The translations under genes and the position numbers were made by a program. From positions 4,170,001-4,202,000 of the forward strand of contig NC_009483.1 of assembly GCF_000016745.1 (NCBI RefSeq): 32,000 bases of DNA. Reading direction: 5' to 3'. Origin of the DNA: Geotalea uraniireducens Rf4 (lineage in GTDB: Bacteria > Desulfobacterota > Desulfuromonadia > Geobacterales > Geobacteraceae). A model generated the notes under the pieces. It searched no databases. It was not told the DNA's origin and was given only the letters and a program-made list of their open reading frames with translations. Numbering within the stretch: position 1 is the stretch's first letter; every line of letters begins with the position of its first letter. Of the stretch, positions 6,466 to 24,193 are shown in pieces.

Positions 6466-6481
6466 TGCAACGCCGATGCCA
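6466..6481 (-). promoter_or_regulatory. sigma54 (-24/-12) promoter for the mftA operon
   Basis: The minus strand reads TGGCAT-CGGCG-TTGCA with correct GG-N10-GC spacing. It lies about 66 nt upstream of the mftA ATG. Confidence 0.7.
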
Positions 6482-6621
6482 AAAAATAAAACAACGATTT
6501 ATACGTAAATTCCATGGCATTAGCAACAGGCAAATATGGCAGATTTCCATCGAATTGTGGAGAAATGGGGCAACCCATAAGAAAAGAACGTGTCCGCACC
6601 ATAGCTTGATTGTCGACTTTC

Positions 6622-6646
6622 TCCACAACGGGGATTTTATCTACAC
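6622..6646. promoter_or_regulatory. Candidate enhancer (UAS) site TCCACAACGGGGA plus an ATCTACAC half-site
   Basis: It lies about 148 bp upstream of the -24 GG of the mftA promoter. It matches 11 of 13 positions with TCCACACTGGGGA at 16694-16706, and resembles sites at 18215-18227, 23990-24001 and 24012-24023. Confidence 0.5.
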
Positions 6647-6741
6647 TATAATAAACCTGTGTTTTGATTTTATAGGTAGCACCATACTAAAATGGGAAAA
6701 TCGCAATTTAAATTTACCCGGCAGCGGCAATAAAAGGCTCG

Positions 6742-6773
6742 CCCGCGATGGCGGCTTGGCACCATGCCGCGGG
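6742..6773 (-). terminator. Possible terminator hairpin after the HD-GYP operon
   Basis: The minus strand reads CCCGCGGCATGG-loop-CCATCGCGGG, a 10-bp stem with a 2-nt bulge. A TTTTATT run follows, but only after a 6-nt gap, so this is a weak call. Confidence 0.3.
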
Positions 6774-6952
6774 ACCGGATTCTGTCGAAAAGGCGCTAAG
6801 GGAGCTGTTCTTTGGAGATCAAGGATAAGTTGTCAGGCGGTTTTCGGAGCTTAATATTGAGAGAGGAATCAGGGAAGATGGCTGCAGGACTCAGCGCTAT
6901 ATATGCAGGAATTGAAATATTTGGCAGGCTTTCGGAGGGCGGTACGCCCATG

Positions 6953-8212
6953 TCATCCGAAGTACTTCCTGATGCAGGCCCCCAGCTTCCCCCGCAACAG
7001 TCCCTCATCCTCGCGGCAGAGCTCTTCGTAAAAGGACGCGGCATGTTCCAGAAAAAGATCCGCAATGGCCGGATCGAAGTGGGTTCCCCTTGATTCCCGG
7101 ATAATCCCTGTCGAAACGTCGAAGCTGAAAGGTTTTTTGTAGGGACGCCTGGAGGTAAGGGCATCAAACACATCAGCTACGGCAAATATGCGTGCGTTGA
7201 GCGGAATGGCTTCCGCCGTCAGCCCCCCCAGGTAACCGCTACCGTCAAATTTCTCATGATGGCAGCGAACCACATCAACCGCATCCTTCAGCCAGTCATA
7301 GCTACAGACAATGTCCTCGCCGTGCCTCACGTGGGTCTTCATTATCTCGAATTCCTCATCGGTCAACTTTCCCGACTTGAGGAGGATCGAATCCGTGATG
7401 GCGATCTTTCCCACATCATGCAGGAAGGCCCCCTTGATCAGCCCCTGCATGGCAGTGTTCGAGAGCCCTAACTTCTCCCCGAGGCGTACCGAGTAGATCG
7501 TCACCCGGTAGTTGTGGATATTGGTGTCGCTGTCTCGTTTGGCGATGGCACTTCCCAGCACCTCCAACATACCGATATTAGCCTGCGCCAGAATGTGCGA
7601 GTAATCGATGAGTTTGCGGTTGAGCCGGATTATGAGCGGATACAGCGATAAGCTTGTCACGAAAATTACCAGCACAAGCAAGATGAGAGACCAGAGGGTT
7701 TGGCGTTTTATCTGCGTTATGATCTCTTCGGGCGCATGATAAATCCCTTCCATGTAACCGAGTTTGGTTCCCGTGCGGCTATTAATCGGGACAAATACCC
7801 TCAGGTAGGTCTCATTGCCCACCATCATCTTCTGGCGGCGCACTCCCCCCTTCCGGGCAAAGTCGGAAGTATGCTTGGGAAGCCTGGTTTCCACCGCTTT
7901 GGCAGAAGGTTTTACCACCTCGGCGATTTTGTTCGAGCCGGCGTCATAGAATTCGACCACGATGAAGTTGCCGCGGTCAAATATGTCATGAATCTTACGG
8001 TTGAGAAGCGCAAGGGTCTGCCCGGAAGGGAATCCCAGATAGGTGGTAAACTCGGCGGAGTAGTTCGCGGCCTCGGTTTCGGCCATATTAACAACGTGAT
8101 TGTCCAGTCGGGCATTGCCGAAATAATGGACCAACCCGCCGATCAATACCGACAAGACGAGCCAGACGGCCGCAAGCCTGAGTATCAGCCAGCGGTGGAG
8201 GTTATCAAACAT
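6953..8212 (-). CDS. Membrane-anchored sensor with a C-terminal HD-GYP domain (c-di-GMP phosphodiesterase type)
   Basis: 419 aa with two hydrophobic segments flanking a periplasmic-looking region. The HD motif is FLHDVGKI and the signature is HHEKFDGSGYLGG. Confidence 0.85.
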   Translation of the reverse strand: MFDNLHRWLILRLAAVWLVLSVLIGGLVHYFGNARLDNHVVNMAETEAANYSAEFTTYLGFPSGQTLALLNRKIHDIFDRGNFIVVEFYDAGSNKIAEVVKPSAKAVETRLPKHTSDFARKGGVRRQKMMVGNETYLRVFVPINSRTGTKLGYMEGIYHAPEEIITQIKRQTLWSLILLVLVIFVTSLSLYPLIIRLNRKLIDYSHILAQANIGMLEVLGSAIAKRDSDTNIHNYRVTIYSVRLGEKLGLSNTAMQGLIKGAFLHDVGKIAITDSILLKSGKLTDEEFEIMKTHVRHGEDIVCSYDWLKDAVDVVRCHHEKFDGSGYLGGLTAEAIPLNARIFAVADVFDALTSRRPYKKPFSFDVSTGIIRESRGTHFDPAIADLFLEHAASFYEELCREDEGLLRGKLGACIRKYFG

Positions 8213-8268
8213 TTATGGGTGCCCTCCTCATGTTTCCGGTTGTTTGGAGAAGGCGAGCAGACCGGCCG

Positions 8269-8685
8269 TCAGGATCCGGCCCCCCCGTTCTTCTGGAGAA
8301 ACGCGGCGAACTCCATGTCGATGCGGCTGATATGTTGAATCAACCAGGCGACCAGTGTCTGGTTTGTCTGGATAACAAGCGGCAACGTTGCCCCTTCCCT
8401 CCTGAACTGGGATTCCAGCCGATCAACGTCCTCGGTGAAGCGTGTGTGCTGCGCTTTGTGCGCATCATACCCGGGGTAGTTATGCCTGAGCTGGAGCCGC
8501 TCCTCGGCGGCAAAATGGGATTTGATATAGTCATCGAGAAACAGCAGGAGCCGCAGCACCTCATCCCTCCCTTTACCTTCGTTGCATGCGCTCAGCAGGG
8601 AGTCGAACCGGCTGAACAGCTCTTTGTGCTGATTGTCGATTTCCGCCACCCCGGTCGCCAGATTGTTATTCCATTCGATAGACAT
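8269..8685 (-). CDS. Bacteriohemerythrin-like protein
   Basis: 138 aa starting MSIEWNNNLATGVAEIDNQHKELF. It carries H....E, H...H and H....D spacing (IKSHFAAEE, HKAQH, LIQHISRID) typical of hemerythrin cation-binding domains. Confidence 0.85.
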   Translation of the reverse strand: MSIEWNNNLATGVAEIDNQHKELFSRFDSLLSACNEGKGRDEVLRLLLFLDDYIKSHFAAEERLQLRHNYPGYDAHKAQHTRFTEDVDRLESQFRREGATLPLVIQTNQTLVAWLIQHISRIDMEFAAFLQKNGGAGS

Positions 8686-8708
8686 GTAGTTCCTCCTTGT
8701 TTGGTTTA

Positions 8709-9326
8709 TTAAATTGATTCGTTCCTAGGTACGACATGTTTCCAGTTTACAAGATCGAGCCAGAAATATTCCTTCTGCGACAACTTCAGGAAGGCGGCCA
8801 CCACCTCCGGCATGAACATTCCTCCGGACTGAGCCTCGATCTGCCGGCAGATACGTTTCCTCTGGCCGAGAATGTTTCCCGATGTGCGCAGCAGCACCGC
8901 CACCCTGTCGGCCAGGTGCAGGATATGACTACCGAAAGGCGCCCCGCCACCCTGCCGTGGCCGGCCGTCGCCGTCATCCGACCTGACATGGTGGAAACGG
9001 ATTATGTCTGCCACGCCGGCTAGCGGCTCAAAGCTGCTCAGCAGGCGCCACCCCATCTCGGCATGGCTATGGGGATTGTGAAATTCGAACTGCATGGTTT
9101 GCATCCGCTCCTGACCGGATAGTGCACCGATGTCATGAAGCTTGCCGGCCAGAAGCAGCTCGTTGCGATGCTTCTGCGGCAACCCCAGCTGGGCGGCCAC
9201 GCTGTAGGCCACATAGGCGACCCGTTGGTGGTGATTGAAGAGCGCGGGGTTTACCAGATCAATAACGTCCGACAGACAGGTGATCAGATCGGAAAGCTGG
9301 ATGTGCACTTTCTTTTTAACGAGCAT
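8709..9326 (-). CDS. HD-domain protein with a degenerate HD-GYP signature
   Basis: 205 aa with HHQRVAYVA and KLHDIGAL. It has FHHVRSDDGDGRP where HD-GYP enzymes have HHE.xDGSGYP. Confidence 0.7.
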   Translation of the reverse strand: MLVKKKVHIQLSDLITCLSDVIDLVNPALFNHHQRVAYVAYSVAAQLGLPQKHRNELLLAGKLHDIGALSGQERMQTMQFEFHNPHSHAEMGWRLLSSFEPLAGVADIIRFHHVRSDDGDGRPRQGGGAPFGSHILHLADRVAVLLRTSGNILGQRKRICRQIEAQSGGMFMPEVVAAFLKLSQKEYFWLDLVNWKHVVPRNESI

Positions 9327-9601
9327 GGGGCATTCTCTTTTTATCTGTCGCAGAAAAGCACCGCCCAGCGGCTTTATCGTGCGGTATTATTTTTAACAGG
9401 CCCAAAAATGACCAAAAAGGTCGTTTTTGTCAACATATTTCCTGCCAGGATTAAGGCACTTGATTTTTTGCAGAGGGGTTTTGCCTGGAATTGCTGAAAA
9501 CGAACCTTTTTCATTTGTAAAAACTCCCCGCTGCCTTGACACCTCAAGATTAAATTTTTTCCATTTGCACAGCAACGGTCTAATGGTAGATTATTAAATG
9601 A

Positions 9602-10165
9602 TTGAAGTTAAAACGTTTTAAACAAAAGCCACATAAAGAAAATACTCGCTCTGATATTTATTATATCGGCTTGCTCCTGTTTTTCTTTAGACTTGCGTCG
9701 GCAGGAACGGTGTGGGCGGAGGAGGCAAAAATGACCCGGAACGTATCCATGGATGAACTGGTGAAGTACGAAGTGCAGACCGCCATCAGTATGCTGGAGG
9801 CACTCCATGACAAAGTCCTGAAAAAGGAACTTTCCATGGAACAGGCAGAGAAACTGGGTGCCGACCTGTTGAGGAACCTTCGATACGGAGACAAGAACGA
9901 GGGGTATTTCTGGGCCGACACGCCGGAGGGTGTAAATGTCGTTCTGTACGGCAGGAAGGATGTAGAGGGGAAGAGCAGGTACGAAGCCAACATTATGGGA
10001 GTGGATTACGTCAAGGAGATTATAGCCAAGGGGTTGCAGCCGAACGGCGGATTCTCGGATTACTGGTTCACGAAAATGGGCGGAACGGAGTTAGTGCCGA
10101 AGCGCGCATATACCCTCCAGTTCAAACCGTTCGGATGGATTGTCGGAACTGGATACTATCCTTAA
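9602..10165 (+). CDS. Stand-alone Cache (sCache_2-like) sensor-domain protein with a putative signal peptide. The start is uncertain (TTG 9602, or ATG 9731 with a strong GGAGGAGG RBS).
   Basis: 187 aa. It shows Cache_2-like motifs (AISMLEALH, LRYGDKNEGYFWADT, GWIVGTGYY). It ends right after GTGYYP, where sensor proteins normally continue into a TM helix. Confidence 0.6.
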   Translation: MKLKRFKQKPHKENTRSDIYYIGLLLFFFRLASAGTVWAEEAKMTRNVSMDELVKYEVQTAISMLEALHDKVLKKELSMEQAEKLGADLLRNLRYGDKNEGYFWADTPEGVNVVLYGRKDVEGKSRYEANIMGVDYVKEIIAKGLQPNGGFSDYWFTKMGGTELVPKRAYTLQFKPFGWIVGTGYYP

Positions 10166-10201
10166 TCCGGCCCACCGCGTGATGCCCAGCCGTACGCGAA
10201 A

Positions 10202-10238
10202 GGAGAGTCCGTCCGCAAGCCGGACGGGCTCTCCTTTT
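10202..10238 (+). terminator. Rho-independent terminator after the Cache gene
   Basis: GGAGAGTCCGTCCG-caag(c)-CGGACGGGCTCTCC forms a 14-bp stem with one G-U pair, followed by TTTT. Confidence 0.7.
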
Positions 10239-10554
10239 CCAGCAGTCTCTCTGCTTCCTGAGGGGGCTTATTCCAATTTCAAATCAAGGATGAAATCAGG
10301 TCTTGACGAATGTGAATTCGGTGGCCGGCTCGATAAGGGCCAGTACCTGCGGGCTGGTCGGCAGCCCCGTGCTGTCCGGCTGTTCCCTGCCGAGGAGCTG
10401 TTAATGAATAGCATGGTCAAAATTGCGCTCTGATTTAGGTCAGATTTGGCCGAACTGATTGAGCTAAACCGCAGACGTAGCACGGCTACGTTGAGGATTT
10501 GGCGATTGAAGATCGGCTAAAGATGACCTGAAGATGAGATGCAAGATGCCCATA

Positions 10555-12480
10555 TTATTTGTTTACAGTTCCTTTCTTGTGACTGGCCGGCAAAAGCACC
10601 GTAAACTGCGTTCCTTCTCCGGGCCGGCTTTCCACCTGGATCTCGCCGCCATGACGCTTGATGATATTATACGTCAGGGCCAGGCCGAGGCCGATCCCCT
10701 TGCCGACCTCTTTGGTTGTAAAGAAGGGGTCCCAGATCCGGTCGATCTTATCCTGTGCGATACCGCAGCCGGTATCACGGATCCTGACGGAAACCGTCGT
10801 GTCATCCAGGTTCTCCGTCGTCAATTCCACCAGACCGGTCCCTTTGATCGACTGGTGGGCGTTTATCAGCAGGTTCATGCAGACCTGCCGCAATCCGGAC
10901 GGATCACCCAGGACAGAGTGGAGGTCTTTGCTCAGATGGGTAACGACTTCAATCTGTCGATAGATCTGCTGGTGCCGCAACAGCTCAAGAATTTCCAGCA
11001 GGACCACGTTCATATCCACCTCGACAGCAGAACCGTCCGATTTCCTGCTGAAACTGAGCAGGTGGTCGATGATCCCCTTGCAGCGGTAGGACTCCCGGAC
11101 GATTACTTCGAGGTAGTGCGGAAAGACATCCAGCCGGCAATCATCTTTCAAGGCCGGTTCGTCACGGAAACGCCTCAAAAGCCCTTCTGCGTAGCCCGCT
11201 ATCGAGGTGAGAGGGTTGTTGATTTCATGGGCGATTCCGGTGGCAAGCACGCCGATGCCCGACATTTTTTCGGTCTGGATCAGATGCATTTCCTGCAATC
11301 TTTTTTCCGAGATGTCCCTGAAAAAGACGAGTGCCCTGTTTTTCTCTCCCAGTGCGTCTTTGATGGGGGTGGCGGTTATGTCAAAATACAGGGTTTTTTG
11401 CCCTTCCCGTACGGAAACCTGAGACGTCTCCACCCGCTCGCCCCGGAGAGCCCTTTCGACGGGACAAAGTTGCGGCATGGATGGAGTTTCCGGATGAAAG
11501 ATGTCCCGGCAGGATTTCCCTGGAAGTATCTCCTTGGGATATAACTGCGGACTAATGAGATTATGATGCTGGATCAGGCCGTCATGGTCGTAGACCGTGA
11601 TACCGTCGCTGATCGAGTCGAAGATCGCCTGAAGTTCGTTAGTTTTGTTTCTCAGCTCGACTTCGGCCTGTTTCCGCTCAGTGATATCCTGGGTCGTGCC
11701 GTAGAGCCGCACCACCTTGCCGGCACTGTTCACCGACGGCTCGACGATGGAATAGACCCACCGGCAGCTGCCCTCGCCGAACTGCAGGCGGTGTTCGATC
11801 TCATAGCTCTTGCCATGTTCGACACCCAGCCGCAGGTGCCACATGACGTTCTCACGATCTTCGGAATGTACCACGCTGGCAAAGGACTCCTGGGTGGCCT
11901 CGTCGCGGCTGAGATGCATGATGCGCAGCAGTTCGTCGGAGGCCTTCACCTCTGAGGTGGTCGGGTCGAAGCTCCAGGAGCCCACGTGGGTCATGGACTG
12001 GGCCTTGGCCAGGTTGTATTCGCTCTCCGACAGGGCCCGTTCGGCCAGTTTCTTCTCGGTTATGTCCACCAGCACGGCCAGACACTCTTCCCCCGATTCG
12101 GTGACCATGGCCTCAATACGCACAAATAGCGGCTGTTTGTCTCGCTGCGCAAGACCCAGCCGGCAGGTTTCCTTGCCTTGGCTGCAGAAGACCGTGGCGA
12201 GATAATTGACGAATACGAACCACTCATCATCGGCTACGAATTCCCCGAAACGCCTGCCCACCAGATCATTACGTTCGACACCCAAAAGGCGCACACCGGT
12301 CAGGTTGACCGACTGAATAACTCCTTCACGGTCGAAAGTAAAATAACCTACCGGAGCAAAATCGTAAAGCAGGGCGTACTTGTTCCTTGATGCCTCCAGT
12401 TCCTCCTGGAACTTGCGCAATTCCTCGATCTTCGTCTCCAACTCGAGTTGGTGAGCATGATTTTCACGGAATTGTTTCAA
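10555..12480 (-). CDS. Multi-PAS sensor histidine kinase (no receiver domain)
   Basis: 641 aa with an N-terminal coiled coil and repeated PAS-like blocks. The H-box is [18 protein letters not shown]. The HATPase N, G1 and G2 boxes are [17 protein letters not shown] and GKGIGLGL. Confidence 0.9.
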
Positions 12481-12609: not shown

Positions 12610-14016
12610 TCACCAATGGCTGCGCCCGCCAGGGTCGAAACTCGGCTGACTGCCGCCACTTGTACCACGCTTATAGTAGTCCTTGGAATCATAGGTTTCC
12701 GCTGCTTTGGCTTCCTGCAGGCGTTTTTTGTCAATCGGATCTGCCCGGTCGGCATATATGTCTCGCAGCAGGTTTTCGACGACCATGCTCAGATCTTCCA
12801 CCGTTTTTACTACCTCCACCTTGTCGCAATATGCGCCGTAGATATCCATCAGACAGTCGCCGCGACTCCAGGTATCACGATCTTCCGGGGTAAGCCAGAG
12901 CATATAGCGGGCCTTCTCGCGGATCTCGTCCAGCACCCAGTCGTTGGCCTCGTCGTAGTTGTTGCGTGCATCTCCCAGGATGATAAAGGCCGGTCTCCCC
13001 CGCAGGTTTTCCAGATACCTTTTCTTGAAGTTCAGAAACACCTGGCCGAAACTGCTATTTTCATCCAGATCAACGATGTCCCCCTTGTCAATGGTTTCCA
13101 TCAGGTCGTTGACAGGCATGTTTGCCAGCATTTCTGTGATTTCCGCCACTTCCCGATTGAAGATGAAACTGCGGACATCCAGCATCTGATTATGCAGGGT
13201 ATGAAGAAGCAGCAGCATGAAGCGGGAGGCATGGCTCACGGAAAAGCTGACATCACACAGAACCACCAGTCGCGGTTTTTCCCTCCGTTTTCGACGTAAT
13301 GCCACCTGGAACGGCACCATGTCGTGACGGTAATTTTTCTGGATCGTCTTGATGACGTGGAGTTTTCCGCGATTCTGATTATTCTTCATCCGTTTCATAT
13401 CTTTGCGCAGACGCAGCATCATGCGGGAAACCACGTCCTGCATGGCGGCCTGCTCTTCAGGCGTAAAGGTGACGCCCCTGTTGGTGCTGTTGCTCTTGTT
13501 AAGCTCGATCGTGAGCGGATTCTGCGTATAGCGTCGCGACGGCCGGGGCGCTTTCGACTTTCCGCGGTACCCCTTCATCTGGACAACTATTTCAATACCA
13601 TCCGTGTCGTCCGGATCAATCTCTGTCAGGCTTTTCAGCTCGGCTAAATCTTCCGGATTGATATCGCTGTCAAGTTTGAGCAGCGGGCCGTTCTCATCGT
13701 GATCGTCACCCGGCAGTTGGTCGAGGTAGTTGAATTCCCCCTCCATGCCGATGATGGCGGCGTCCATGAGATCGGGAATATCGACGTCCGGGTCGACAGA
13801 CTGGAACCGGCTGAAAAAACGGTTGAAGACCTCATTGAATACCGGAATGTCATTGACATTCTTCACCAGAGTCAGACGCAGGAGCCGCCGGGTCAACCGG
13901 CGCCGTTCCATTCCGGCCAGCGCCAGGGCCTGGACCGCATCCAGGCTTTCACCTGGTGATACGCGGATGCCGCTTTCACGAAGAGCGGCGACGAAACGGG
14001 TGATTATTCGTTCCAT
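12610..14016 (-). CDS. VWA-domain protein of the CoxE type (partner of the MoxR/CoxD ATPase)
   Basis: 468 aa. The N-terminus is RFVAALRESGIRVSPGESLDAVQAL. A MIDAS-like VVLCDVSFSVS is present, along with the C-terminal block AFIILGDARNNY. It starts 2 nt after the MoxR stop. Confidence 0.75.
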   Translation of the reverse strand: MERIITRFVAALRESGIRVSPGESLDAVQALALAGMERRRLTRRLLRLTLVKNVNDIPVFNEVFNRFFSRFQSVDPDVDIPDLMDAAIIGMEGEFNYLDQLPGDDHDENGPLLKLDSDINPEDLAELKSLTEIDPDDTDGIEIVVQMKGYRGKSKAPRPSRRYTQNPLTIELNKSNSTNRGVTFTPEEQAAMQDVVSRMMLRLRKDMKRMKNNQNRGKLHVIKTIQKNYRHDMVPFQVALRRKRREKPRLVVLCDVSFSVSHASRFMLLLLHTLHNQMLDVRSFIFNREVAEITEMLANMPVNDLMETIDKGDIVDLDENSSFGQVFLNFKKRYLENLRGRPAFIILGDARNNYDEANDWVLDEIREKARYMLWLTPEDRDTWSRGDCLMDIYGAYCDKVEVVKTVEDLSMVVENLLRDIYADRADPIDKKRLQEAKAAETYDSKDYYKRGTSGGSQPSFDPGGRSHW

Positions 14017-14018
14017 GG

Positions 14019-15065
14019 CTAGCTCATTTCCTGCACAGCCAGTTCCGTAACCTTCTGCAGGTCTGTCTGGTGTTTGGCAATCACGCCGACGGTATTGGCT
14101 ACCACCTCCGGTGTAAGCTGTGTCGCCTTCATGATCGAAAGCACCTGTGCCCAGTCAAGGGTTTCGGAAACACTGGGGGGCTTGCGCAGATTCAGTTCGC
14201 GGGCCTTACGCAGGAATGCCACCATCTGCTGTGCCAGATCCCCGCAGAGGTCGGGGAATTTTGCCCGGACGATCGCTACTTCCCGCTCCAGCTCCGGATA
14301 ACCGATATAGAGATACAGGCAGCGCCGGCGCAACGCGTCGGAGATCATCCGCGTGCCGTTACTGGTCAGGATCGTCAGCGGCTTTCTCTTGGCCTCGATT
14401 ACCCCCAATTCGGGGATCGAAACCTGAAAGTCGCTCAGACACTCCAGAAGCAGCGCTTCGAATTCATCGTCGGAGCGGTCGATCTCATCGATAAGCAACA
14501 GCGAACGTTTTTCGGACAAGAAACTGCGCAGAATCGGTCGCTGTACCAGGAAATTTTTTGAAAAAAACAGGCTCTCTTCGGCAGAAAGACGCTCGACGGC
14601 TTCCCGCAGGTCAGCTGATACGGAGAGGTAGGTATCTAGCTGGGTACGCAGCAATTGGGTATAGAGCAGCTGTTTGCCGTACTCCCAATCATAGAGTGCC
14701 TTTCCCTCGTCGATCCCTTCGTAGCACTGCAGTCTCACCAGGGGAAAATCCAGGGCAGAGGAGAGGGCCTTGGCCAGGCCGGTCTTCCCTACACCGGGAG
14801 GGCCTTCGATCAGGATCGGCTTCTCCATGTGGATGGCCAGAAAAACGGCGGTGGCGATGGCATCGTCGGCGATGTAGCCACTTGTGTTGAGAAGATCCTT
14901 AACCCCTTGTTCGGTAATCATGATGGCCTCGTAACGTTGAATTTTATATCTGTTAGTACTGTCTTTCATTGCAATCTTTGCGCCGGCAAGAGAACATTGT
15001 TTTAGATATTCAGATGCGGTGCGGACAGCTAATAAAATAAGCCGCTGGCGCCCGGTGAGGGACAT
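14019..15065 (-). CDS. MoxR/CoxD-like AAA+ ATPase. The true start is probably the internal ATG at 14969 or 14921.
   Basis: Walker A is LIEGPPGVGKTGLAKAL and Walker B is LLLIDEIDRSDDE. The size and the VWA partner downstream fit the MoxR family. Confidence 0.85.
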   Translation of the reverse strand: MSLTGRQRLILLAVRTASEYLKQCSLAGAKIAMKDSTNRYKIQRYEAIMITEQGVKDLLNTSGYIADDAIATAVFLAIHMEKPILIEGPPGVGKTGLAKALSSALDFPLVRLQCYEGIDEGKALYDWEYGKQLLYTQLLRTQLDTYLSVSADLREAVERLSAEESLFFSKNFLVQRPILRSFLSEKRSLLLIDEIDRSDDEFEALLLECLSDFQVSIPELGVIEAKRKPLTILTSNGTRMISDALRRRCLYLYIGYPELEREVAIVRAKFPDLCGDLAQQMVAFLRKARELNLRKPPSVSETLDWAQVLSIMKATQLTPEVVANTVGVIAKHQTDLQKVTELAVQEMS

Positions 15066-16330: not shown

Positions 16331-16535
16331 AGGTACTTCCTCCTTGTGTGATGTGTGCTCTTTACGTTGCAGTTTTTATTTAGTGCTTTAAAACGATACG
16401 GCCACCGGGACTAAGACTCTTTACTGACTTAACTACCACCCCCTTATAACTTCGTTTTAGTATATTTCTGACAACCATGGAAAGAACCGCTTTACACTAC
16501 TATATGGTTCAACTTGGCCTCATAACCCATGACAT

Positions 16536-16551
16536 AGCAAGTTAGATGCCA
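16536..16551 (-). promoter_or_regulatory. sigma54 promoter for ADH1
   Basis: The minus strand reads TGGCAT-CTAAC-TTGCT, about 205 nt upstream of the ATG at 16330. Confidence 0.65.
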
Positions 16552-16693
16552 ATAGAAACATTGGTTTATTTTTGCCACTTTTAGGCGCTTTGCTGTGATT
16601 TTAAGAATATAGCCAGCCGGGCATTGCGGGGAATTATGAAACATTTTTTTAAACAATAGCCCTGTTTATGCCTCAGCAGCGCTATGGATATTA

Positions 16694-16706
16694 TCCACAC
16701 TGGGGA
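16694..16706. promoter_or_regulatory. Candidate UAS site TCCACACTGGGGA
   Basis: It lies about 150 bp upstream of the ADH1 -24 element. It is near-identical to the site at 6622-6634 and in the same orientation relative to the gene. Confidence 0.5.
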
Positions 16707-16797
16707 ATTTCACCACGTTGATTAAAGGAAGGGGATCAGAAATAGAGGGAGAAATACAAAAAAAATGCAGTAATCCGGTTAATCGTCAGAATAATTC

Positions 16798-17895
16798 TCA
16801 AGAGTTAAAGGAATTTTGTCGATGTATATTCCGTCTCAGCTCACACCGGTCGTCTGGCGCCAGAAAGTCTCCACGGCTCCCCCACGCCCGCCCCATGCAT
16901 CCACCGGCGCAGGCGAACCTGCCGGGACACTCCCGGCACTCCGCTATTGCGTCCACTCGGCAGAGGCTTGTCTGCAGCAGGGATGACCAGAGAGAAGCTC
17001 CCTCGGCAAAGGCCACGGCGAGATTTTTCCCCCATACCCCTGAAACCGAGTAATCATCGGTATGGCACAGCACACAGGGGTACAGTCTGCCGCCCGGTGT
17101 GATATATGGGTTTTCGACAAACGTGCAGCATTCCGAACGTGGGGCATCTTCCTTGCGCCACTCCAGGGCTGCCACATTGCCGATTTTATCATAGAGATCC
17201 CGGAAGCAATGGTCGGTATCGTAGCGGCGCAGTAATCGCCGATACTGATCCAGACCGGCAGGAACGACCAGAGATTCTTCTTCTGCCCGCCCGCAAAGGA
17301 CAAGGGAGCCGGTGACTACGGAACCGACACCCAGCTCGGCTGCAAGCTCGAGAAGAGCAGGAATCTCATCCAGATTGTGGCGCATCTCCGTAAAGAACAG
17401 CGTAATATGCCGCGCCAACCCTCCCCGGACGAGCAGCCGCACCCCTGCCAGCGCCCCAGCAAAGGCCCCTTCCCCTCTCACGAGGTCATGGGTCGGCGCC
17501 GCAGCCCCATCAAGGCTGACCTGAACAGATAGCCGCGGAAACTCCAGTTCGCGCAGCACAGATACTGCATCGTCATCGAACAACATGCCGTTGGTCTGAA
17601 TTGAGACGTCGCATAACCCGATTGAGCGGCCGAACTGCATGAGTTTCAACCAGGCGGGATGGCAGAGCGGCTCCCCGCCGGTGAAGCGAATCCCCGCGCC
17701 GCCAAGCGCCACGAACTCCTCCATCAGCCGGCGCAGCGTCCGTTCCGGCACATGAGCAGCAGCAGAGGACCCACCCGCTTCGACCCAGCAATGCCGGCAG
17801 GTGAGGTTACAGGCGCCGGTTATGGCGAGCGTCAACGTTTTAGGGGGACGTACTCCCGCGCGTGATAGGATTTTCACAGCTTCAGATGGCAACAT
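16798..17895 (-). CDS. Radical SAM/SPASM-domain protein with no assigned substrate
   Basis: 365 aa. The rSAM motif is GACNLTCRHC. The SPASM motifs are CCTFVENPYITPGGRLYPC, CRECPGRFACAGGC and DDRC. Confidence 0.85.
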   Translation of the reverse strand: MLPSEAVKILSRAGVRPPKTLTLAITGACNLTCRHCWVEAGGSSAAAHVPERTLRRLMEEFVALGGAGIRFTGGEPLCHPAWLKLMQFGRSIGLCDVSIQTNGMLFDDDAVSVLRELEFPRLSVQVSLDGAAAPTHDLVRGEGAFAGALAGVRLLVRGGLARHITLFFTEMRHNLDEIPALLELAAELGVGSVVTGSLVLCGRAEEESLVVPAGLDQYRRLLRRYDTDHCFRDLYDKIGNVAALEWRKEDAPRSECCTFVENPYITPGGRLYPCVLCHTDDYSVSGVWGKNLAVAFAEGASLWSSLLQTSLCRVDAIAECRECPGRFACAGGCMGRAWGSRGDFLAPDDRCELRRNIHRQNSFNS

Positions 17896-17940: not shown

Positions 17941-18040
17941 ACGCAACGACGCGACGACGCAACGTTTTAAAACCATGAACCATAATTTTAAAATGCCTTT
18001 CGTCGCGTCGTCGCGTCGTCGCGTCGTCGCGTCGTCGCGT
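17941..18040. repeat. Octamer arrays in inverted orientation: (ACGCAACG, ACGCGACG, ACGCAACG), a 36-nt AT-rich spacer, then (CGTCGCGT)x5
   Basis: Read directly. Five perfect CGTCGCGT units span 18001-18040. Three complementary units span 17941-17964, and the two variant units would give G-U pairs in RNA. The locus lies inside the predicted 5' leader of the rSAM/SPASM gene. Confidence 0.85.
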
Positions 18041-18064: not shown

Positions 18065-18080
18065 TGCAACGCCGGTGCCA
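18065..18080 (-). promoter_or_regulatory. sigma54 promoter for the rSAM/SPASM gene
   Basis: The minus strand reads TGGCAC-CGGCG-TTGCA, a perfect consensus. It differs from the mftA promoter at one base and has the identical CGGCG spacer. Confidence 0.7.
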
Positions 18081-18200
18081 AGCAGTAAAACAGCGGTTGC
18101 CTTGCTTTACGACTGTTTTCAAAGGATTTTGAGGCAGGCCATCAACGACGGACTATGGCGTTCGGTAGTTGTCTAAACCGCGTTACTGCAAATGGTTACA

Positions 18201-18241
18201 AAATGGGTATTTTATCCACAGTGTAGATATATTACCCATTT
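18201..18241. promoter_or_regulatory. 41-bp palindrome containing the UAS-like core ATCCACAGTGTAGAT
   Basis: The outer arms are AAATGGGTA and TACCCATTT. The inner core is TCCAC-AGT-GTAGA. The centre is about 143 bp upstream of the -24 GG at 18078-18079. Confidence 0.55.
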
Positions 18242-18449
18242 AGTCCCCGAAAAATGACATGAAAGTGGCCGGATTTTACAGAAAGCGCCTACAGCGAGGA
18301 AAAATCATGGACTAAATATAAGAATTGAGGCGGCACAGCGAAGACTTATCCTCGCCCTCAAAAGACAAGGCCCCAAACAGTGTAGAGAAATGCAACAGTG
18401 AAACAGGAAGGTGTGCGATCAACGCAAAGCAATACGGACAGACAGTTTT

Positions 18450-18887
18450 CTATGCATCGAGACGGCAGATCAAGGCGCCGACCGAAACGGTCCCGCCTTT
18501 GATGACCCTTGCGAAGATCCCCTCTTTAGGCATGACGCAGTCCCCTGCCTGATAAAAAATAGCGCAGCGGTTGTGACACTCCTTGCCGATCTGTGTTACC
18601 TCGATGACGGCATCGCCCACTGCCAGCCGGGTGCCGATCGGCAGGGCTACGAGGTCGAGACCGCGGGTCGTGATGTTTTCGGCAAAATCGCCGGAATCGA
18701 CATCGAGTCCCAAGGCCCGCATCTTCGCAATGCTCTCCGTAGCGAGCAGGCTCACCTGTCGGTGCCAATCACCCGCATGGGCATCGCCGACTATGCCGTG
18801 GTTTTCCTTCAGTTCTACAGCGTCTACCGGCGTTTTGCGCTGGCCTTTCTCTTTGCTGATACAGACAGCGACAACAGTTGGTGTCAT
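18450..18887 (-). CDS. MOSC-domain protein (molybdenum cofactor sulfurase C-terminal domain family)
   Basis: 145 aa with the pattern VGDAHAG..HRQVSLL...GDFAENITT.G......IGT.L.VG.A..EVTQ.GKEC. It is in moaA context. Confidence 0.75.
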   Translation of the reverse strand: MTPTVVAVCISKEKGQRKTPVDAVELKENHGIVGDAHAGDWHRQVSLLATESIAKMRALGLDVDSGDFAENITTRGLDLVALPIGTRLAVGDAVIEVTQIGKECHNRCAIFYQAGDCVMPKEGIFARVIKGGTVSVGALICRLDA

Positions 18888-18904
18888 TGGGTCTCCAAAG
18901 GCAT

Positions 18905-19015
18905 GTTCGAGGTTCGAGGTTCGAGGTTCGAGGTTCGAGGTTCGAGGTTCGAGGTTCGAGGTTCGAGGTTATTTTTGCTTTTCAACATCGAACCTCGAAC
19001 GTAGAACGTAGAACC
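18905..19015. repeat. Heptamer array (GTTCGAG)x9, perfect over 63 bp, then a 20-nt AT-rich spacer and an inverted degenerate array (ATCGAAC CTCGAAC GTAGAAC GTAGAAC)
   Basis: Read directly. It fills the moaA-MOSC intergenic gap (19027 to 18888). Confidence 0.9.
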
Positions 19016-19027
19016 GGTTTTAGCTGT

Positions 19028-20005: not shown

Positions 20006-20057
20006 GGTATCACCTCTTGCAGGGGGGGGATTTACTACGTCCTGCAATGCCTTGCGC

Positions 20058-21431
20058 CTACACGGCGAGGCCGTAACGTTCCAGCTTAGTGTAAAGGGTC
20101 TTGCGGTCGATTTCAAGTACCTTCGCAGCCTTGCTCTTGTTCCCCTCCAACTTCTCGAGCACCTTCTGGATATAGTCACGTTCGACGACCCAGAGCGGCA
20201 GCGGCAATACGTCGGGCAAACCGGTGACGGCAAACGACGGCGCAGTTTTGGGCGGCGAAAACGGCAGCAGGTCGGAAGAAATAATCTGGTCGGTTGCCAG
20301 GATACTGGCACGGCGGATGGTGTTCCGCAGCTCCCTTACGTTTCCCGGCCAGGAATAGGCGCAGAGGGCAGCCATTGCTTCCTCGGAGATCTCCCAGTTG
20401 GCGCTGCCGCTCTCGTTGGCGCTTTTAAGAAAATAGTACGAAAGCGGTATGATATCTTCCGGCCGCTCCCGCAAAGGGGGGATGTTGATGGGGAGGAGGT
20501 TGATGCGGTGGAACAGGTCTTCCCGGAACTCGCCACGATTCACGCAATCCTCGAGCTTTTTGTTGGAAGCGAAGACGAACCGGACATCTACGCTGATGTC
20601 GTGGTTCCCCCCCATGCGTCGGAAGGTGCCGGTCTCCAGGATACGGAGAAGCTTCACCTGTACATCCAGCGGCATTTCCGATATCTCGTCCATGAACAGG
20701 GTACCGGTGTCGGCCAATTCGAAGAGACCGGCCCGACCTTTATTTGCGCCGGTGAAAGCCCCCTGCACATGGCCGAATAGTTCGCTCTCGGCGGTGTTGG
20801 CGCTGAGCCGGCCGCAATTGACCGTTACAAAAGGCTTGTTGGCCCGACGACTGGCGTCGTGGACGGCCCGGGCGAACAGTTCCTTGCCGGCGCCGCTCTC
20901 TCCGCAGATGAGGACATGCTCGTCGGTGGCCCCCCAACGCCGGACGGTTTCAAGTACCTTTTGGATGACCTGGCTTTTGCCGACAATACGGTGTTGGTCA
21001 AGCTTGCTGATTTCCAGTTTCAGATTGATATTTTCCAGACGCAGGCGGTTTTTTTCATTGGCCTTGTCGATCACCATCTCCAGTTCATCCAGCTTGACCG
21101 GCTTGGTAAGGTAGTCATACGCCCCATACTTGATGCATTCGACAGCCGTTTCGATGGTACCGTGGCCGGTAAAGACGATAACCTCGGGGATTGTCGATTC
21201 GGTCCGCATCTGCCTGAGAACCTCCACCCCGTCCATCCCCGGCATCCTCATGTCGAGAAGAACGACATTGAAAACCTCCTGCCGGTATTTGTCGAGTCCT
21301 TCTTCACCGTCAGACGCTGATTCGACCTTGTAGCCGCTCCGGGTAAGTTCCATGTGAAGGAGCTCCCGTAATGGTTTGTCATCTTCTATAACAAGAATTT
21401 TTGCCTCTTTGCGCGTTACTACTGTTGACAT
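20058..21431 (-). CDS. NtrC-family sigma54-dependent response regulator (REC + AAA+ + Fis-type HTH)
   Basis: 457 aa. The REC domain shows ILVIEDD...VVLLDMRMPGMDG. Walker A is GESGAGKE. GAFTGA is present (HVQGAFTGAN). The C-terminal HTH is NKSKAAKVLEIDRKTLYTKL. Confidence 0.93.
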   Translation of the reverse strand: MSTVVTRKEAKILVIEDDKPLRELLHMELTRSGYKVESASDGEEGLDKYRQEVFNVVLLDMRMPGMDGVEVLRQMRTESTIPEVIVFTGHGTIETAVECIKYGAYDYLTKPVKLDELEMVIDKANEKNRLRLENINLKLEISKLDQHRIVGKSQVIQKVLETVRRWGATDEHVLICGESGAGKELFARAVHDASRRANKPFVTVNCGRLSANTAESELFGHVQGAFTGANKGRAGLFELADTGTLFMDEISEMPLDVQVKLLRILETGTFRRMGGNHDISVDVRFVFASNKKLEDCVNRGEFREDLFHRINLLPINIPPLRERPEDIIPLSYYFLKSANESGSANWEISEEAMAALCAYSWPGNVRELRNTIRRASILATDQIISSDLLPFSPPKTAPSFAVTGLPDVLPLPLWVVERDYIQKVLEKLEGNKSKAAKVLEIDRKTLYTKLERYGLAV

Positions 21432-22627
21432 GCTGGAAGCCTCACCGTGAATTTAGATCCTTCTCCATGCTTACTTTCTACGTGGATCTCGCCGCCGTGC
21501 TTCTTAATAATATTATAGGTAACAGCCAGGCCGAGGCCAAGCCCCTGGCCCACATCTTTCGTGGTAAAGAACGGATCCCAAATCTGGTCCATGAGAGATG
21601 AAGGGATGCCGCACCCGCTATCGCAGATAGTGGCGGTCACCACTCCGTTCTGATCGAAGGTGGCAATTTTTATCATCCCGGGTCCGTCAATGGCCTGGAG
21701 AGCGTTCATAGTCAGGTTCATGAAAACCTGTCGTAGACCGGCCTCATCCCCCTTAATCATAGGCAGGTCCGGCTGCATGGATTCCTGTATCTCGATTTTT
21801 TCATTGCGGGCCTTATGCCGAACCAGTTCCAGGACCTCATTCAGGATCTTATTGAGATCCACAAACCCGACCGAACCCTCCGATTTCCGACTGAAACTCA
21901 GCAGACTGTCAATAATCCCCTTGCACCGGTAAGACTCGCGGATTATGACCTCCAGATATTTCTTGAAATCTTTGAGCCGGTTGTCCTCCACCAGTCCAGT
22001 CTCATCGCGGAACCTTCGCAGCAAGGCTTCGGCGTAACCGGCCACGGAGGTGAGCGGGTTGTTGATCTCGTGCGCCACACCAGCGGCAAGCATGCCGATA
22101 CTCGACATTTTCTCGGCCTGCACAAGTTGGAGCTCGTTAAGCCGCTTTTCGGTAACATCCCGGATGAATACGAGCGCGCGTGTTTGTTCGTTGGGATCTT
22201 CAATCGGGGTCGCCGTGACGTCGAAATAACGGCTTTCTCCGATCCCTTTCGTCGTTGTAAAGGAAATCTGCATGCTCTTGCCGGCCAAGGCCTGTTCTAC
22301 CGGGCATTGCTGGGGCGAATGGTCGCTTTCGGGGTGAAAAAGCGCCCTGCAACTCCGCCCGACAAGGGTTTCCGTGGGGAACAGCCTGGGACATACGTGA
22401 TTTCGATGCTGAATGCACCCATTATGATCGTAGATGACCACGCTGTCACTAATGGCATCAAAGACAGCCTGGAGTTCATTGGTTTTGATCCGCAAACCAA
22501 GGTTGGCTGCCTCCAATTCCTGGATTTTCTGTTTGACTTCCGAATAGAATCCGATCTTTGAGCTTTCAAGGCCCAGCAGACGTTCGAGATTCGGTTCGTC
22601 AATCAGTGTTCGCTTTGCTTCTCCCAT
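21419..22627 (-). CDS. PAS sensor histidine kinase (cognate to the adjacent regulator)
   Basis: The H-box is [18 protein letters not shown]. HATPase boxes are NLTMNALQA, DSGCGI and GQGLGLGL. The preferred start is ATG 22627, one nt after the ADH2 stop. The track start at 22669 would overlap ADH2 by 41 nt. Confidence 0.88.
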   Translation of the reverse strand: MGEAKRTLIDEPNLERLLGLESSKIGFYSEVKQKIQELEAANLGLRIKTNELQAVFDAISDSVVIYDHNGCIQHRNHVCPRLFPTETLVGRSCRALFHPESDHSPQQCPVEQALAGKSMQISFTTTKGIGESRYFDVTATPIEDPNEQTRALVFIRDVTEKRLNELQLVQAEKMSSIGMLAAGVAHEINNPLTSVAGYAEALLRRFRDETGLVEDNRLKDFKKYLEVIIRESYRCKGIIDSLLSFSRKSEGSVGFVDLNKILNEVLELVRHKARNEKIEIQESMQPDLPMIKGDEAGLRQVFMNLTMNALQAIDGPGMIKIATFDQNGVVTATICDSGCGIPSSLMDQIWDPFFTTKDVGQGLGLGLAVTYNIIKKHGGEIHVESKHGEGSKFTVRLPACQQ

Positions 22628-22628
22628 C

Positions 22629-23792
22629 TCAGTAGGCCCTTTCGAGAATTGCCAGGAGGTCTTTTTCATCGGCCTGGCGTGGTGAAGTCACGATGCAAAC
22701 GTCTTTGAGAGCCTTTCGGGCCAGTTCCGGCAAATCCTTGCGTACAACACCCAGACTTCTCAGGCTCCGGGGCGCACCAGCGGCTTCGAGCATGGAAACC
22801 AGCGTTTCCTGAACCACTTCCGACGCAGTGTTAGTGCTCCCGTCAGTCCGGTGGCCGAGGCCCCAGGCCAGTTCCGGCAGTTTTTCCGTTACGACCGGGA
22901 TGTCATACTTGATCACTTCCGGCAGCAGTACCGCATTGATGCTGCCATGGTTCGCGTCGTAGAGTCCGCCGATCGGGTGAGCCAGGGCATGGACAATGCC
23001 GAGAAGGGAATTGGAAAACGCCATCCCGGCGTGAAGGCTGGCCCTGGCAAGATTCTCCAGGTCGGCTGCTTTTCGCTCCCTGACTGCCTCGACCAAGCTG
23101 GTCGAAACAAGGCGTAATGCCTTAATGGCATGGACGTCGGTGAGGGAGGTGGAAGCCACTGAAAAAAAGGCCTCAAGCGCATGGCTGAGAGCGTCGGTTG
23201 CAGTAGTGCAGACATACTCGTCAGGAAGGGTTTCAAGGGTATCCGGGTCGGTCAGGCTGATGTCGGGAGCGACGCAGCGGCTCATGATGGTCAATTTGCA
23301 GTGCTGCTCGGTGTCGGTGATGATGGCGAACTGGGAAACATCGGAACCGGTCCCGCAGGTGGTCGGACAAAGGACAAGCGGAGGAAGTGGACGGAAAATC
23401 TTGTCGGACCCTTCGAAATCCTTGATCCGCCCGCCATTGGAAACGAGTATGGCGATACCTTTGGCCGCATCCATGGCGCTCCCCCCTCCAAGCCCCACAA
23501 TGACATCGGCCCCGTGACGAATATATTCCAGGGCTCCAGCCTCCACCTCCACATCCTTCGGATTCGGCGTGATATTATCGTAGAAAATCACCTCAAGCCC
23601 CGCATCCATGATGTTTTTGATGGCCTTGTCCACCCATCCGGCGCTGAAGAGCCCCTGATCGCTGACCAGAAAAACCTTGTGACCACCCAGGCGTCGGGCG
23701 CACGAGCCGATCTGGCTCAGCAGCCCTCTGCCGAAGATGATCTCCGGCACTTCGAATTTGCAGTGATGAAGATTGCTCTCCACATTAACCAT
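22629..23792 (-). CDS. Iron-type alcohol dehydrogenase, paralog 2 (ADH2)
   Basis: 387 aa with GLGGGSAMDAAKGI, DALSHALE and IVHALAHPIGGLYDANHG. An AAGAGG RBS is present. Confidence 0.9.
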   Translation of the reverse strand: MVNVESNLHHCKFEVPEIIFGRGLLSQIGSCARRLGGHKVFLVSDQGLFSAGWVDKAIKNIMDAGLEVIFYDNITPNPKDVEVEAGALEYIRHGADVIVGLGGGSAMDAAKGIAILVSNGGRIKDFEGSDKIFRPLPPLVLCPTTCGTGSDVSQFAIITDTEQHCKLTIMSRCVAPDISLTDPDTLETLPDEYVCTTATDALSHALEAFFSVASTSLTDVHAIKALRLVSTSLVEAVRERKAADLENLARASLHAGMAFSNSLLGIVHALAHPIGGLYDANHGSINAVLLPEVIKYDIPVVTEKLPELAWGLGHRTDGSTNTASEVVQETLVSMLEAAGAPRSLRSLGVVRKDLPELARKALKDVCIVTSPRQADEKDLLAILERAY

Positions 23793-23881
23793 ATCTAGCC
23801 TCTTGCTTATTTTAACATAGTTCTAGTGTTCCGAAATCCAAATTTTCAGTCCCATCTTCGTGTATTAATACTATTTACAAT

Positions 23882-23897
23882 AGCAATAGGTATGCCG
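23882..23897 (-). promoter_or_regulatory. sigma54 promoter for the ADH2-kinase-regulator operon
   Basis: The minus strand reads CGGCAT-ACCTA-TTGCT, with GG and GC correctly spaced. It lies about 90 nt upstream of the ATG at 23792. The flanks resemble the ADH1 promoter (ATAGCAA.T.G.TATGCC). Confidence 0.55.
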
Positions 23898-23989
23898 ATA
23901 TGTCAAACAAGGTTTTACTATTTCAAATTATTTAATTTTTGTTTTTGCCTGCCGCCCCCCTCTCATTCATTAACGATTTGATCGCTTTT

Positions 23990-24037
23990 TCCACGTTGTG
24001 GCGGGAAATTCTCCACGGTGTGGCTATTCTCCACACC
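23990..24037. promoter_or_regulatory. Cluster of UAS-like sites: TCCACGTTGTGG, TCCACGGTGTGG and the half-site TCCACACC
   Basis: There are two CCAC-N3-GTGG palindromes 22 bp apart plus a third half-site. They lie between the divergent sigma54 promoters at 23882-23897 (-) and 24178-24193 (+). Confidence 0.55.
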
Positions 24038-24177
24038 ATTTATTCTCTTTTGCGCCAGGATCTATTGACGGCGAACTAAGGCGAACTCACCACGCAAATT
24101 CTTTTTTACACGTTTTTACAAGCTCTGGCGGCAAATTTTCATGAACGCTTTGCAGAAAAAAAATAATGTTTTATTTA

Positions 24178-24193
24178 TGGCACTCACGTTGCA
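24178..24193 (+). promoter_or_regulatory. sigma54 promoter, perfect consensus, facing the porin operon
   Basis: TGGCAC-TCACG-TTGCA on the plus strand. It lies about 450 nt upstream of the porin ATG at 24647. Confidence 0.65.

Follow-up and report, generated by a model that had tools for sequence, protein, structure and literature searches.

A predicted sigma-54 regulon joining mycofactocin synthesis and alcohol dehydrogenase genes in Geotalea uraniireducens

We have analysed a stretch of 32,000 nucleotides from Geotalea uraniireducens Rf4 (contig NC_009483.1, positions 4,170,001 to 4,202,000; hereafter the window), which holds genes for the synthesis of mycofactocin, a probable redox cofactor, together with the genes of two iron-type alcohol dehydrogenases (Fe-ADH), ADH1 and ADH2, of an NtrC-type activator and of two histidine kinases, HK1 and HK2. 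Elements of the -24/-12 type, characteristic of sigma-54 promoters, stand before the main operons, and a conserved 35-bp composite site lies upstream of them; together they point to a common regulon. The mycofactocin cluster of this organism and the neighbouring Fe-ADHs were described by Haft, who inferred the link between cofactor and alcohols (PMC3023750), and a methanol-oxidation cluster adjoining the mycofactocin genes was found in G. pickeringii by Badalamenti and Bond, the link being inferred for that species as well (PMC4358379); neither of them describes a sigma-54 promoter there. In mycobacteria, mycofactocin is required for alcohol metabolism (PMC6529628, PMC11778925). How the cluster is regulated is not described in the genome paper of G. 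metallireducens (PMC2700814) or in the RpoN regulon paper of G. sulfurreducens (PMC2725144), though an alcohol dehydrogenase figures among the RpoN-linked genes of the latter, and our literature search found no paper joining mycofactocin with sigma-54.

Genes of the locus

The mft operon (Table 1) contains the mycofactocin core, that is MftA with its conserved C-terminal motif, MftB and the MftC maturase. All three, along with the OYE-2 oxidoreductase, score above the NCBIfam cut-offs (MftB 67 against 33, MftC 353 against 265, OYE-2 1017 against 793). Orthologous mft operons are closed by a gene for an MftF-like glycosyltransferase, and in L090-L093 (related loci are given by number throughout) ThiS/ThiF-like genes follow the operon, alongside an aldehyde:ferredoxin oxidoreductase gene. 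In the orthologous 21-kb mft loci (L090-L093) we saw no mftD, mftE or mftG, which suggests a maturation or re-oxidation route unlike that of mycobacteria; the window itself stops before that region.

The best match of ADH1 is the N,N-dimethyl-4-nitrosoaniline (NDMA)-dependent methanol dehydrogenase family (301.7 bits, cut-off 625), and the genes that follow it encode MadB-like (296.9, cut-off 475) and MadC-like (156.9, cut-off 600) proteins. ADH2 is 30% identical to ADH1 and scores 421.9 bits on the ErcA model NF041833 (cut-off 550), which is its best match by a wide margin; judged by sequence, it is nearer to the regulatory Fe-ADH ErcA than to a catabolic enzyme. The initial annotation had tied mycofactocin to both Fe-ADHs; this stands in so far as mftA, ADH1 and ADH2 share upstream sites, but only ADH1 is kin to the mycofactocin-linked methanol dehydrogenase family. 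ADH2 overlaps HK1 by 41 bp, and every orthologous locus has this pair. By analogy, we infer that ADH2-HK1 may work like ErcA-ErcS of Pseudomonas.

The activator, already recognised in the initial annotation as NtrC-type, possesses a receiver domain (REC) with the DMRMPGMDG aspartate, the Walker A motif GESGAGKE, an intact GAFTGA loop and a C-terminal HTH_8 domain (Pfam, NCBIfam and sequence). Since its scores on AtoC (415.7, cut-off 714), NtrC (393.4, cut-off 558.6) and ZraR (357.3, cut-off 760) lie well below these equivalog cut-offs, it is orthologous to none of the named regulators. The best NCBIfam match of both kinases is AtoS. A PAS kinase for the activator had been placed in the ADH2 operon, and HK1 is indeed encoded there, but there is a second paralogue, HK2, and both probably signal to the single activator: over its C-terminal 372 aa, HK2 has 58% identity with HK1, a Cys-containing PAS domain and a near-identical helix of the dimerisation and histidine phosphotransfer domain being common to both. 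The conserved cysteines of this PAS domain (SCRxxFHPE...CPVExAL) could form a metal or redox-sensing site. A crude hydropathy scan found no membrane segment in HK1 or HK2.

Table 1 Genes, promoters and upstream sites of the window (PWM, position weight matrix score of each 17-bp unit)
Feature	Position	Strand	Remarks
mft operon: mftA, mftB, mftC, mycofactocin OYE-2 oxidoreductase, EtfA-like, FixC	6400 down to 719	-	
mftA	6293..6400	-	35 aa, C-terminus IDGICGVY
mftB	6037-6366	-	
mftC	5004-6047	-	
HD-GYP, hemerythrin, Cache genes	6953-10165		
ADH1 operon: ADH1, MadB-like, MadC-like, HK2	16330-10555	-	
ADH1	15125-16330	-	related to NDMA-dependent methanol dehydrogenase
MadB-like AAA ATPase	14019-15065	-	
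MadC-like VWA protein	12610-14016	-	
HK2	10555-12480	-	cytoplasmic multi-PAS histidine kinase, final gene of ADH1 operon
Radical SAM protein	16798-17895	-	365 aa, role not assigned
Regulator operon: ADH2, HK1, activator, MoaA, MOSC	23792-18450	-	
ADH2	22629-23792	-	ErcA-like Fe-ADH
HK1	21419-22669	-	PAS kinase
NtrC-type activator	20058-21431	-	
MoaA	19028 to about 20005	-	
MOSC protein	18450-18887	-	
Porin-like protein, SCO4226-like, AmiS/UreI channel, two unknowns, ABM protein	24647-28557	+	
HdrC-like Fe-S protein, then HdrB-like CCG-domain protein	29102-30811	+	HdrC-like ATG at 29102
mftA promoter TGGCATCGGCGTTGCA	6466..6481	-	first T to mftA ATG 81 bp; kept upstream of mftA in L088, L090-L093, L003
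ADH1 operon promoter TGGCATCTAACTTGCT	16536..16551	-	kept at 12 orthologous loci
Radical SAM gene promoter TGGCACCGGCGTTGCA	18065..18080	-	same architecture in L089
ADH2-HK1-activator operon promoter CGGCATACCTATTGCT	23882..23897	-	
Porin/SCO4226-like/AmiS-UreI channel operon promoter TGGCACTCACGTTGCA	24178..24193	+	preceded by TGTTTTATTTA; kept at 9 loci
Probable sixth promoter TGGCGCAGCTTTTGCT, HdrC-like gene	29010..29025	+	first T to ATG 92 bp; kept in L030
Promoter-proximal element of mftA ATAAATCGTTGTTTTATTTTT	6482..6502	-	AAAYC-N2-4-TGTTT class, abuts -24
Promoter-proximal element of ADH1 AATAAACCAATGTTTCTAT	16552..16570	-	
mftA enhancer pair, 6611-6627 and 6629-6645	6611..6645		PWM 14.7, 16.9; contains 13-mer 6622-6634
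mftA weak third unit TGCCCCATTTCTCCACA	6556..6572		sequence as read on minus strand; CTCCACA half conserved
ADH1 enhancer pair, 16683/16701	16683..16717		PWM 20.4, 16.0; 36-bp footprint in 8 genomes; contains 13-mer 16694-16706
ADH1 third unit TGTTTCATAATTCCCCG	16627..16643		sequence as read on minus strand; PWM 9.2; invariant alignment block
Radical SAM gene enhancer pair, 18204/18222	18204..18238		PWM 17.9, 16.0; contains 13-mer 18215-18227
Extra single unit, radical SAM gene upstream region	18381-18397		PWM 13.2
Common enhancer pair of divergent ADH2 and porin promoters, 24001/24019	24001..24035		PWM 10.7, 20.6; core is 13-mer at 24012
Single near-perfect unit TGTGGATTTTAACCACA, upstream of sixth promoter	28717-28733		PWM 18.2
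Enhancer pair 28774/28792, upstream of sixth promoter	28774-28808		PWM 13.1, 14.7

Sigma-54 promoters and the upstream composite site

Four exact matches to TGGCAYN5TTGCW occur in the window against 0.11 expected (none of 100 shuffles reaches four), all of them intergenic and directed at the adjoining gene. GG and GC lie 10 bp apart in these four and in a fifth element with a single mismatch, that of ADH2 (CGGCAT); GG-N10-GC is kept in 9 promoters orthologous to the latter, with a variable first base. These five 16-mers are the ones put forward in the initial annotation and were recovered exactly, in position and strand. The -24/-12 elements of the window agree with the sigma-54 consensus TTGGCACGGTTTTTGCT of G. 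sulfurreducens (PMC2725144); both G. sulfurreducens and G. metallireducens possess rpoN, which is essential in the former (PMC2725144, PMC2700814). An element with one mismatch (TGGCGC...TTGCT) before the HdrC-like gene is probably a sixth promoter of the set. In addition, a sigma-70-like sequence, TTGACA-18-TATTGT (23906-23877, minus strand, 10/12 matches), overlaps the ADH2 sigma-54 promoter; its TTGACA is kept in six of the nine orthologues, and it could provide basal transcription of the sensor/activator operon.

Orthologous loci were fetched via the activator and via MftC, and about 15 related genomes were used for phylogenetic footprinting. The upstream alignments consist of short conserved islands within DNA that otherwise cannot be aligned, namely the -24/-12 element, an AAAYC-N2-4-TGTTT element, a block near -83 and a block of about 36 bp around a 13-mer, TCCACN3GTGGA. 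With at most one mismatch, the 13-mer occurs eight times in the window (1.05 expected; 0/100 shuffles reach 8), and five of the eight copies have a sigma-54 element 99-182 bp downstream. The five upstream 13- or 12-mers reported earlier are likewise present letter for letter at their positions and on their strands. The dyad is thus real and above chance, but it had been drawn too narrowly: the 13-mer comprises the inner half-sites of two abutting 17-bp dyads, which together form an element of 35 bp, TGKGGA-N5-TCCMCA / N / YGTGGA-N5-TCCMYA. Across 32 orthologous sites the information content is high from -17 to +17 about the 13-mer centre and two-fold symmetric, the outer half-sites carrying 1.2-1.4 bits at key positions and mirroring the inner ones. 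The fuller consensus, TGKGGA-nAAWn-TCCMCA-N-YGTGGA-nAAtn-TCCMYA, describes 6-N5-6 units with an AT-rich centre.

A symmetric 17-bp position weight matrix (PWM), trained on the other genomes with the window excluded, gave 18 matches of at least 9 bits in the window, compared with 5.2 +/- 2.2 for shuffled sequence. Five pairs have a spacing of exactly 18 bp, each of them upstream of a sigma-54 element, and none was found in 300 shuffles; over the other spacings from 10 to 30 the window has a single pair, at 20. Full 17-bp units also stand alone at regulon promoters (at 28717 in the window, at -84 in L088 and at -105 in L093). Of the two 13-mers that had been assigned to the ADH2/porin region, only that at 24012 is part of the conserved composite; the 23990 copy falls outside it, lacks outer halves and is restricted to the window and its closest relative. 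Because full units occur alone and this isolated 13-mer is poorly conserved, we regard the 17-bp dyad as the recognition unit.

The position of the composite is also constrained (all distances are counted from the T of TGGCA). For ADH1 and mftA, the unit centres lie at about -156 and -138, with the junction at about 145-151, in nearly all genomes, the two exceptions being at -147/-129; in the mftA promoters of 7 genomes the pair stands at -154/-157 and -136/-139. At the porin promoter the units are mostly at about -158/-140, with variants about one helical turn to either side, and at the ADH2 promoter, which has its enhancer in common with the porin promoter, they are at about -128/-110; in the window, the distance from the junction of this common site is 121 bp to the ADH2 promoter and 160 bp to the porin promoter. 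Third units are centred 83 bp (mftA) and 84 bp (ADH1) upstream of T in the window, and a weaker third unit at -81 to -84 is present at most mftA promoters and, at the threshold used, at about half of the ADH1 promoters. The distances between dyad centre and -24 GG given in the initial annotation (148, 150 and 143) hold to within 1 bp: we count 148 (mftA), 150 (ADH1) and 142 (radical SAM gene; 143 to the second G) to the first G. Multiple dyad sites 80-200 bp upstream of -24/-12, common to several promoters, constitute the arrangement of an enhancer.

Directly upstream of -24, TGTT is found 6-11 nt before GG in 31 of 41 regulon promoters as part of the AAAYC-N2-4-TGTTT element, the outer bases of which often form an AAAC-N4-GTTT palindrome; the element is missing from the sole clear non-regulon sigma-54 promoter in the loci examined (L091 5139). 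It may be the operator of a further regulator, as a second layer of control, or a lineage-specific upstream sigma-54 element. The ErcA-like Fe-ADH and the two Cys-containing PAS kinases, for their part, may act jointly as a redox/alcohol gate that sets when the ribosomally made cofactor is produced. We put both ideas forward tentatively, as less likely than not. The AAAYC-N2-4-TGTTT element, like the 35-bp extent of the composite, the unit near -83, the promoter at 29010 and the kinase at 10555-12480, had not been listed in the initial annotation. The promoter-proximal element and a ATGTTTCAWAATTCCCC block were compared by eye with the consensus WATCARNNNNTTR of integration host factor; the matches are partial and no such site is claimed.

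Other conserved blocks were noticed around the same promoters. A RAACAnnGGTTT block (6650-6680) lies about 20 bp past the distal edge of the mftA enhancer, and its equivalents in L088 and L090-L093 are situated in the intergenic region shared with a divergent NUDIX gene. The 5' untranslated region of ADH1 (16360-16450) contains a conserved block, CTAWAACGAWGTTAYAAGGAGG, with a Shine-Dalgarno-like sequence some 110 nt before the true ribosome-binding site of ADH1. A structured leader was considered for this block, and RNAalifold found no consensus pairs among the ADH1 5' untranslated regions of 10 genomes; in the alignment, the small open reading frame (ORF) after the Shine-Dalgarno-like sequence is not conserved. 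The porin mRNA leader (24194-24646) is about 443 nt long against about 165-205 nt in relatives, with about 270 nt extra, and has an invariant GC-rich block, GGTCGGCGCACCGGGCGACGG, at about 24212-24232.

Recurrence in related genomes and metagenomes

The activator search of genome contigs returned mostly paralogues from other phyla and at least six useful loci. Gene cluster, promoters and upstream sites were all found again in G. pickeringii, G. pelophilus, a G. metallireducens-like contig, several uncultured Geobacteraceae and related Desulfuromonadales; among these relatives, activator identity falls as low as 72-77%. In these relatives, the porin/SCO4226/AmiS operon, often with a terminal aldehyde dehydrogenase gene, is divergent from ADH2-kinase-activator(-MoaA-MOSC); ADH1-AAA-VWA-kinase comes next, preceded in several loci by the radical SAM gene, and at many loci mftA-B-C-OYE2-EtfA-FixC-FixX-EtfB-glycosyltransferase and then an aldehyde:ferredoxin oxidoreductase gene follow. 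The order of ADH1, AAA ATPase and VWA genes is kept in L081, L082, L084, L086-L088 and L093. Pairs with 18-bp spacing number 38 in 335 kb of related loci and zero in the remaining 74 loci of the activator search (1.22 Mb), which served as negative control. Furthermore, sites accompany additional genes in some relatives: in L030 a pair lies 200 bp upstream of the promoter equivalent to 29010, in L093 a separate promoter and pair serve the aldehyde:ferredoxin oxidoreductase gene, and in L087 a TGTTTTA-type promoter and a strong single unit accompany an aldehyde dehydrogenase gene.

Metagenomes were scanned with a pattern made of the inner 13-mer core, a gap of 112-142 nt, TGTTT, a gap of 3-9 nt and GGCAY-N5-TTGC. 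Strong outer half-sites, although not part of the pattern, are present in 23 of the 81 matches, 22 of which precede ADH1 (16) or mftA/B/C (6); the junction-to-T distance is 146-151 in 22 of the 23 and 138 in one, within a permitted range of 31 bp. Outer half-sites are lacking in the remaining 58 matches, whose distances scatter and whose genes are unrelated. Composite site, spacing and target genes therefore go together across environmental Geobacteraceae.

Several observations concern the rest of the window. The genes that separate the mft and ADH1 operons (6953-10165) encode two HD/HD-GYP proteins, a bacteriohemerythrin and a Cache-domain ORF, and have no regulon sites upstream except for one weak single unit at 9514. 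An ORF called on the plus strand at 18411-19004 has no family match and was rejected, the true gene there being that of the minus-strand MOSC protein. Perfect or near-perfect short tandem repeats with units of 8, 7, 9, 9 and 37 nt and up to 18 copies occur in untranslated or intergenic DNA at 18000-18040, 18905-18970, 29672-29764, 29783-29942 and 30823-30915, and the N-terminal 'NSINSINS' of ORF 29765-30811 is probably translated repeat rather than genuine protein. An Rfam scan of the entire window at the gathering threshold detected no RNA family.

Regulatory model, alternatives and known systems

Footprinting, the PWM trained outside the window and the metagenome scan agree in supporting the common regulon with a local, autoregulated activator that the initial annotation had proposed. 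On this sequence evidence, which is strong, we consider it likely that the window represents an NtrC-type sigma-54 regulon for alcohol oxidation, including mycofactocin synthesis, under the local activator. In such a circuit the activator would be phosphorylated by HK1 and/or HK2, with the ErcA-like ADH2, encoded beside HK1, as probable sensing partner for the presumed inducing signal, an alcohol or redox state. Activator dimers would bind 17-bp dyads, TGTGGA-N5-TCCACA, mainly as two abutting dyads about 156 and 138 bp upstream of T, often accompanied by the weaker third unit near -83. Once bound, the dimers would assemble an AAA+ ring and, by DNA looping, contact RNA polymerase-sigma-54 at -24/-12, the predicted transcription starts lying just beyond. 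The targets would be the operon of the activator itself (positive autoregulation), the divergent porin/AmiS-type channel operon, the ADH1-MadB-MadC-HK2 operon, the radical SAM gene and the mftABC-OYE-ETF operon (ETF, electron-transfer flavoprotein), with the HdrCB-like pair as a probable further one. A methanol/ethanol dehydrogenase, mycofactocin synthesis, an ETF-type electron outlet, uptake and molybdenum cofactor (Moco)/aldehyde-oxidising functions would be co-induced; being common predicted targets, the dehydrogenase and its probable redox cofactor would thus be switched on along with the sensors and the uptake functions.

Sites and promoters could be real and the 35-bp element nevertheless bound by another regulator, either an enhancer-binding protein encoded elsewhere or a partner of HK2, with the local activator controlling only a part. 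Geobacter genomes encode many enhancer-binding proteins, and others are found beside the cluster: L081 and L089 have a MimR-like GAF-type activator there and L084 a truncated sigma-54 one. However, the composite sits in the promoter region of the activator in every genome examined, the local activator gene is the only one for an enhancer-binding protein in the window and the only constant one in the cluster, and a 6-N5-6 dyad with AT-rich centre is the format of NtrC-class HTH_8 dimers; we hold this explanation to be unlikely. A recognition unit of 13 bp (TCCAC-N3-GTGGA), bound by one dimer per site with flanks that are incidental or serve another factor, would fit the highest information content, which is in the inner half-sites, and the extra 13-mer at 23990. 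It is quite improbable, given the information in the outer half-sites, the 17-bp units that stand alone at regulon promoters and the lack of conservation of the 23990 copy past the closest relative; in metagenomes the outer halves, which had not been searched for, cleanly split true sites from chance matches, and half-site centres 7-8 bp apart would be unusual for a helix-turn-helix dimer.

Copied promoter modules, spread by duplication or on a mobile cassette, or plain chance might also leave motifs in common without common regulation, and the promoter regions are indeed alike in several short blocks (enhancer, TGTTT element and -24/-12). However, the flanks between the blocks are unalignable within and between genomes, while blocks and spacing are kept down to about 73% activator identity, and chance is excluded by the shuffles in the promoter, 13-mer and PWM-pair tests. 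Moreover, the spacing exceptions amount to about one helical turn (e.g. 137-138 against 147-150), as expected under a face-of-helix constraint. We give an origin of this kind hardly any credence.

The regulon under the local activator thus remains our preferred reading, and several points have to be set against it. A centre-to-centre spacing of 18 bp puts adjacent dimers on different helical faces. We know of no described precedent for dyads abutting in this manner. Any of the other activators beside the cluster could bind. ADH1, ADH2, MadB and MadC all stay under their NCBIfam equivalog cut-offs, and the sixth promoter is off consensus (TGGCGC) and was seen elsewhere in one close relative only. 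The radical SAM gene has a canonical -24/-12 element in the window and L089 only; its enhancer pair is kept more widely, and the element is absent in L082, L084, L002 and L005 despite the pair. Finally, specificity within G. uraniireducens itself was judged on 32 kb of its genome.

To our knowledge, the regulation of mycofactocin is known solely from mycobacteria. In that group, control is exerted by the TetR repressor MftR (PMC8728441). If true, the circuit proposed here would be the first predicted for mycofactocin outside Actinobacteria, and the predicted control in Geobacteraceae, by sigma-54, an NtrC-type activator and an ADH-kinase module, with sites at base-pair resolution, is wholly unlike MftR. 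The link between mycofactocin and Fe-ADH in Geobacter came previously from gene neighbourhood alone, and shared regulation, if true, would be independent evidence for it. The shared sites would further place the porin, the AmiS/UreI-type channel, the radical SAM protein and the Moco genes in one response, along with the aldehyde oxidoreductase and aldehyde dehydrogenase genes in relatives. The 35-bp site appears specific enough for locating regulon members in metagenomes, and the promoters, if the model is true, would provide an alcohol-inducible set for Geobacter engineering.

With the NtrC/AtoC/ZraR class (E. coli AtoSC-atoDAEB and NtrBC-glnAp2), the system has in common the REC, AAA+ (GAFTGA) and HTH_8 domains, best hits to AtoC and AtoS, 17-bp 6-N5-6 dyads, multiple sites 100-190 bp upstream of -24/-12 and autoregulation of the operon, predicted here. 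It differs from the named regulators of the class in the half-site TGTGGA, the two paralogous soluble PAS kinases and the Fe-ADH and mycofactocin targets; furthermore, the dyads abut here at 18 bp centre to centre, whereas the sites at glnAp2 are about three turns apart. In P. aeruginosa, ErcA/ErcS (PA1991/PA1992), a regulatory protein of Fe-ADH type and the sensor kinase encoded with it, control ethanol oxidation; PMC12997753, where Hempel et al. 2013 is cited, lists the two as Fe-ADH and kinase in ethanol regulation. As in that system, ADH2 is immediately upstream of and overlapping a PAS kinase gene and is tied to alcohol oxidation genes; unlike it, the kinase is a plain PAS-HisKA-HATPase protein and not a hybrid, the output is a sigma-54 activator instead of LuxR-type ErbR/AgmR, and the downstream genes are those of an Fe-ADH and mycofactocin in place of a pyrroloquinoline quinone (PQQ) enzyme. 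As in mycobacterial mycofactocin systems, mft genes are linked to an Fe-ADH akin to NDMA-dependent methanol dehydrogenase and to MadB/MadC-like partners, whereas the predicted control is by sigma-54 and an enhancer-binding protein and not by a TetR repressor, and the operon carries ETF/FixCX genes.

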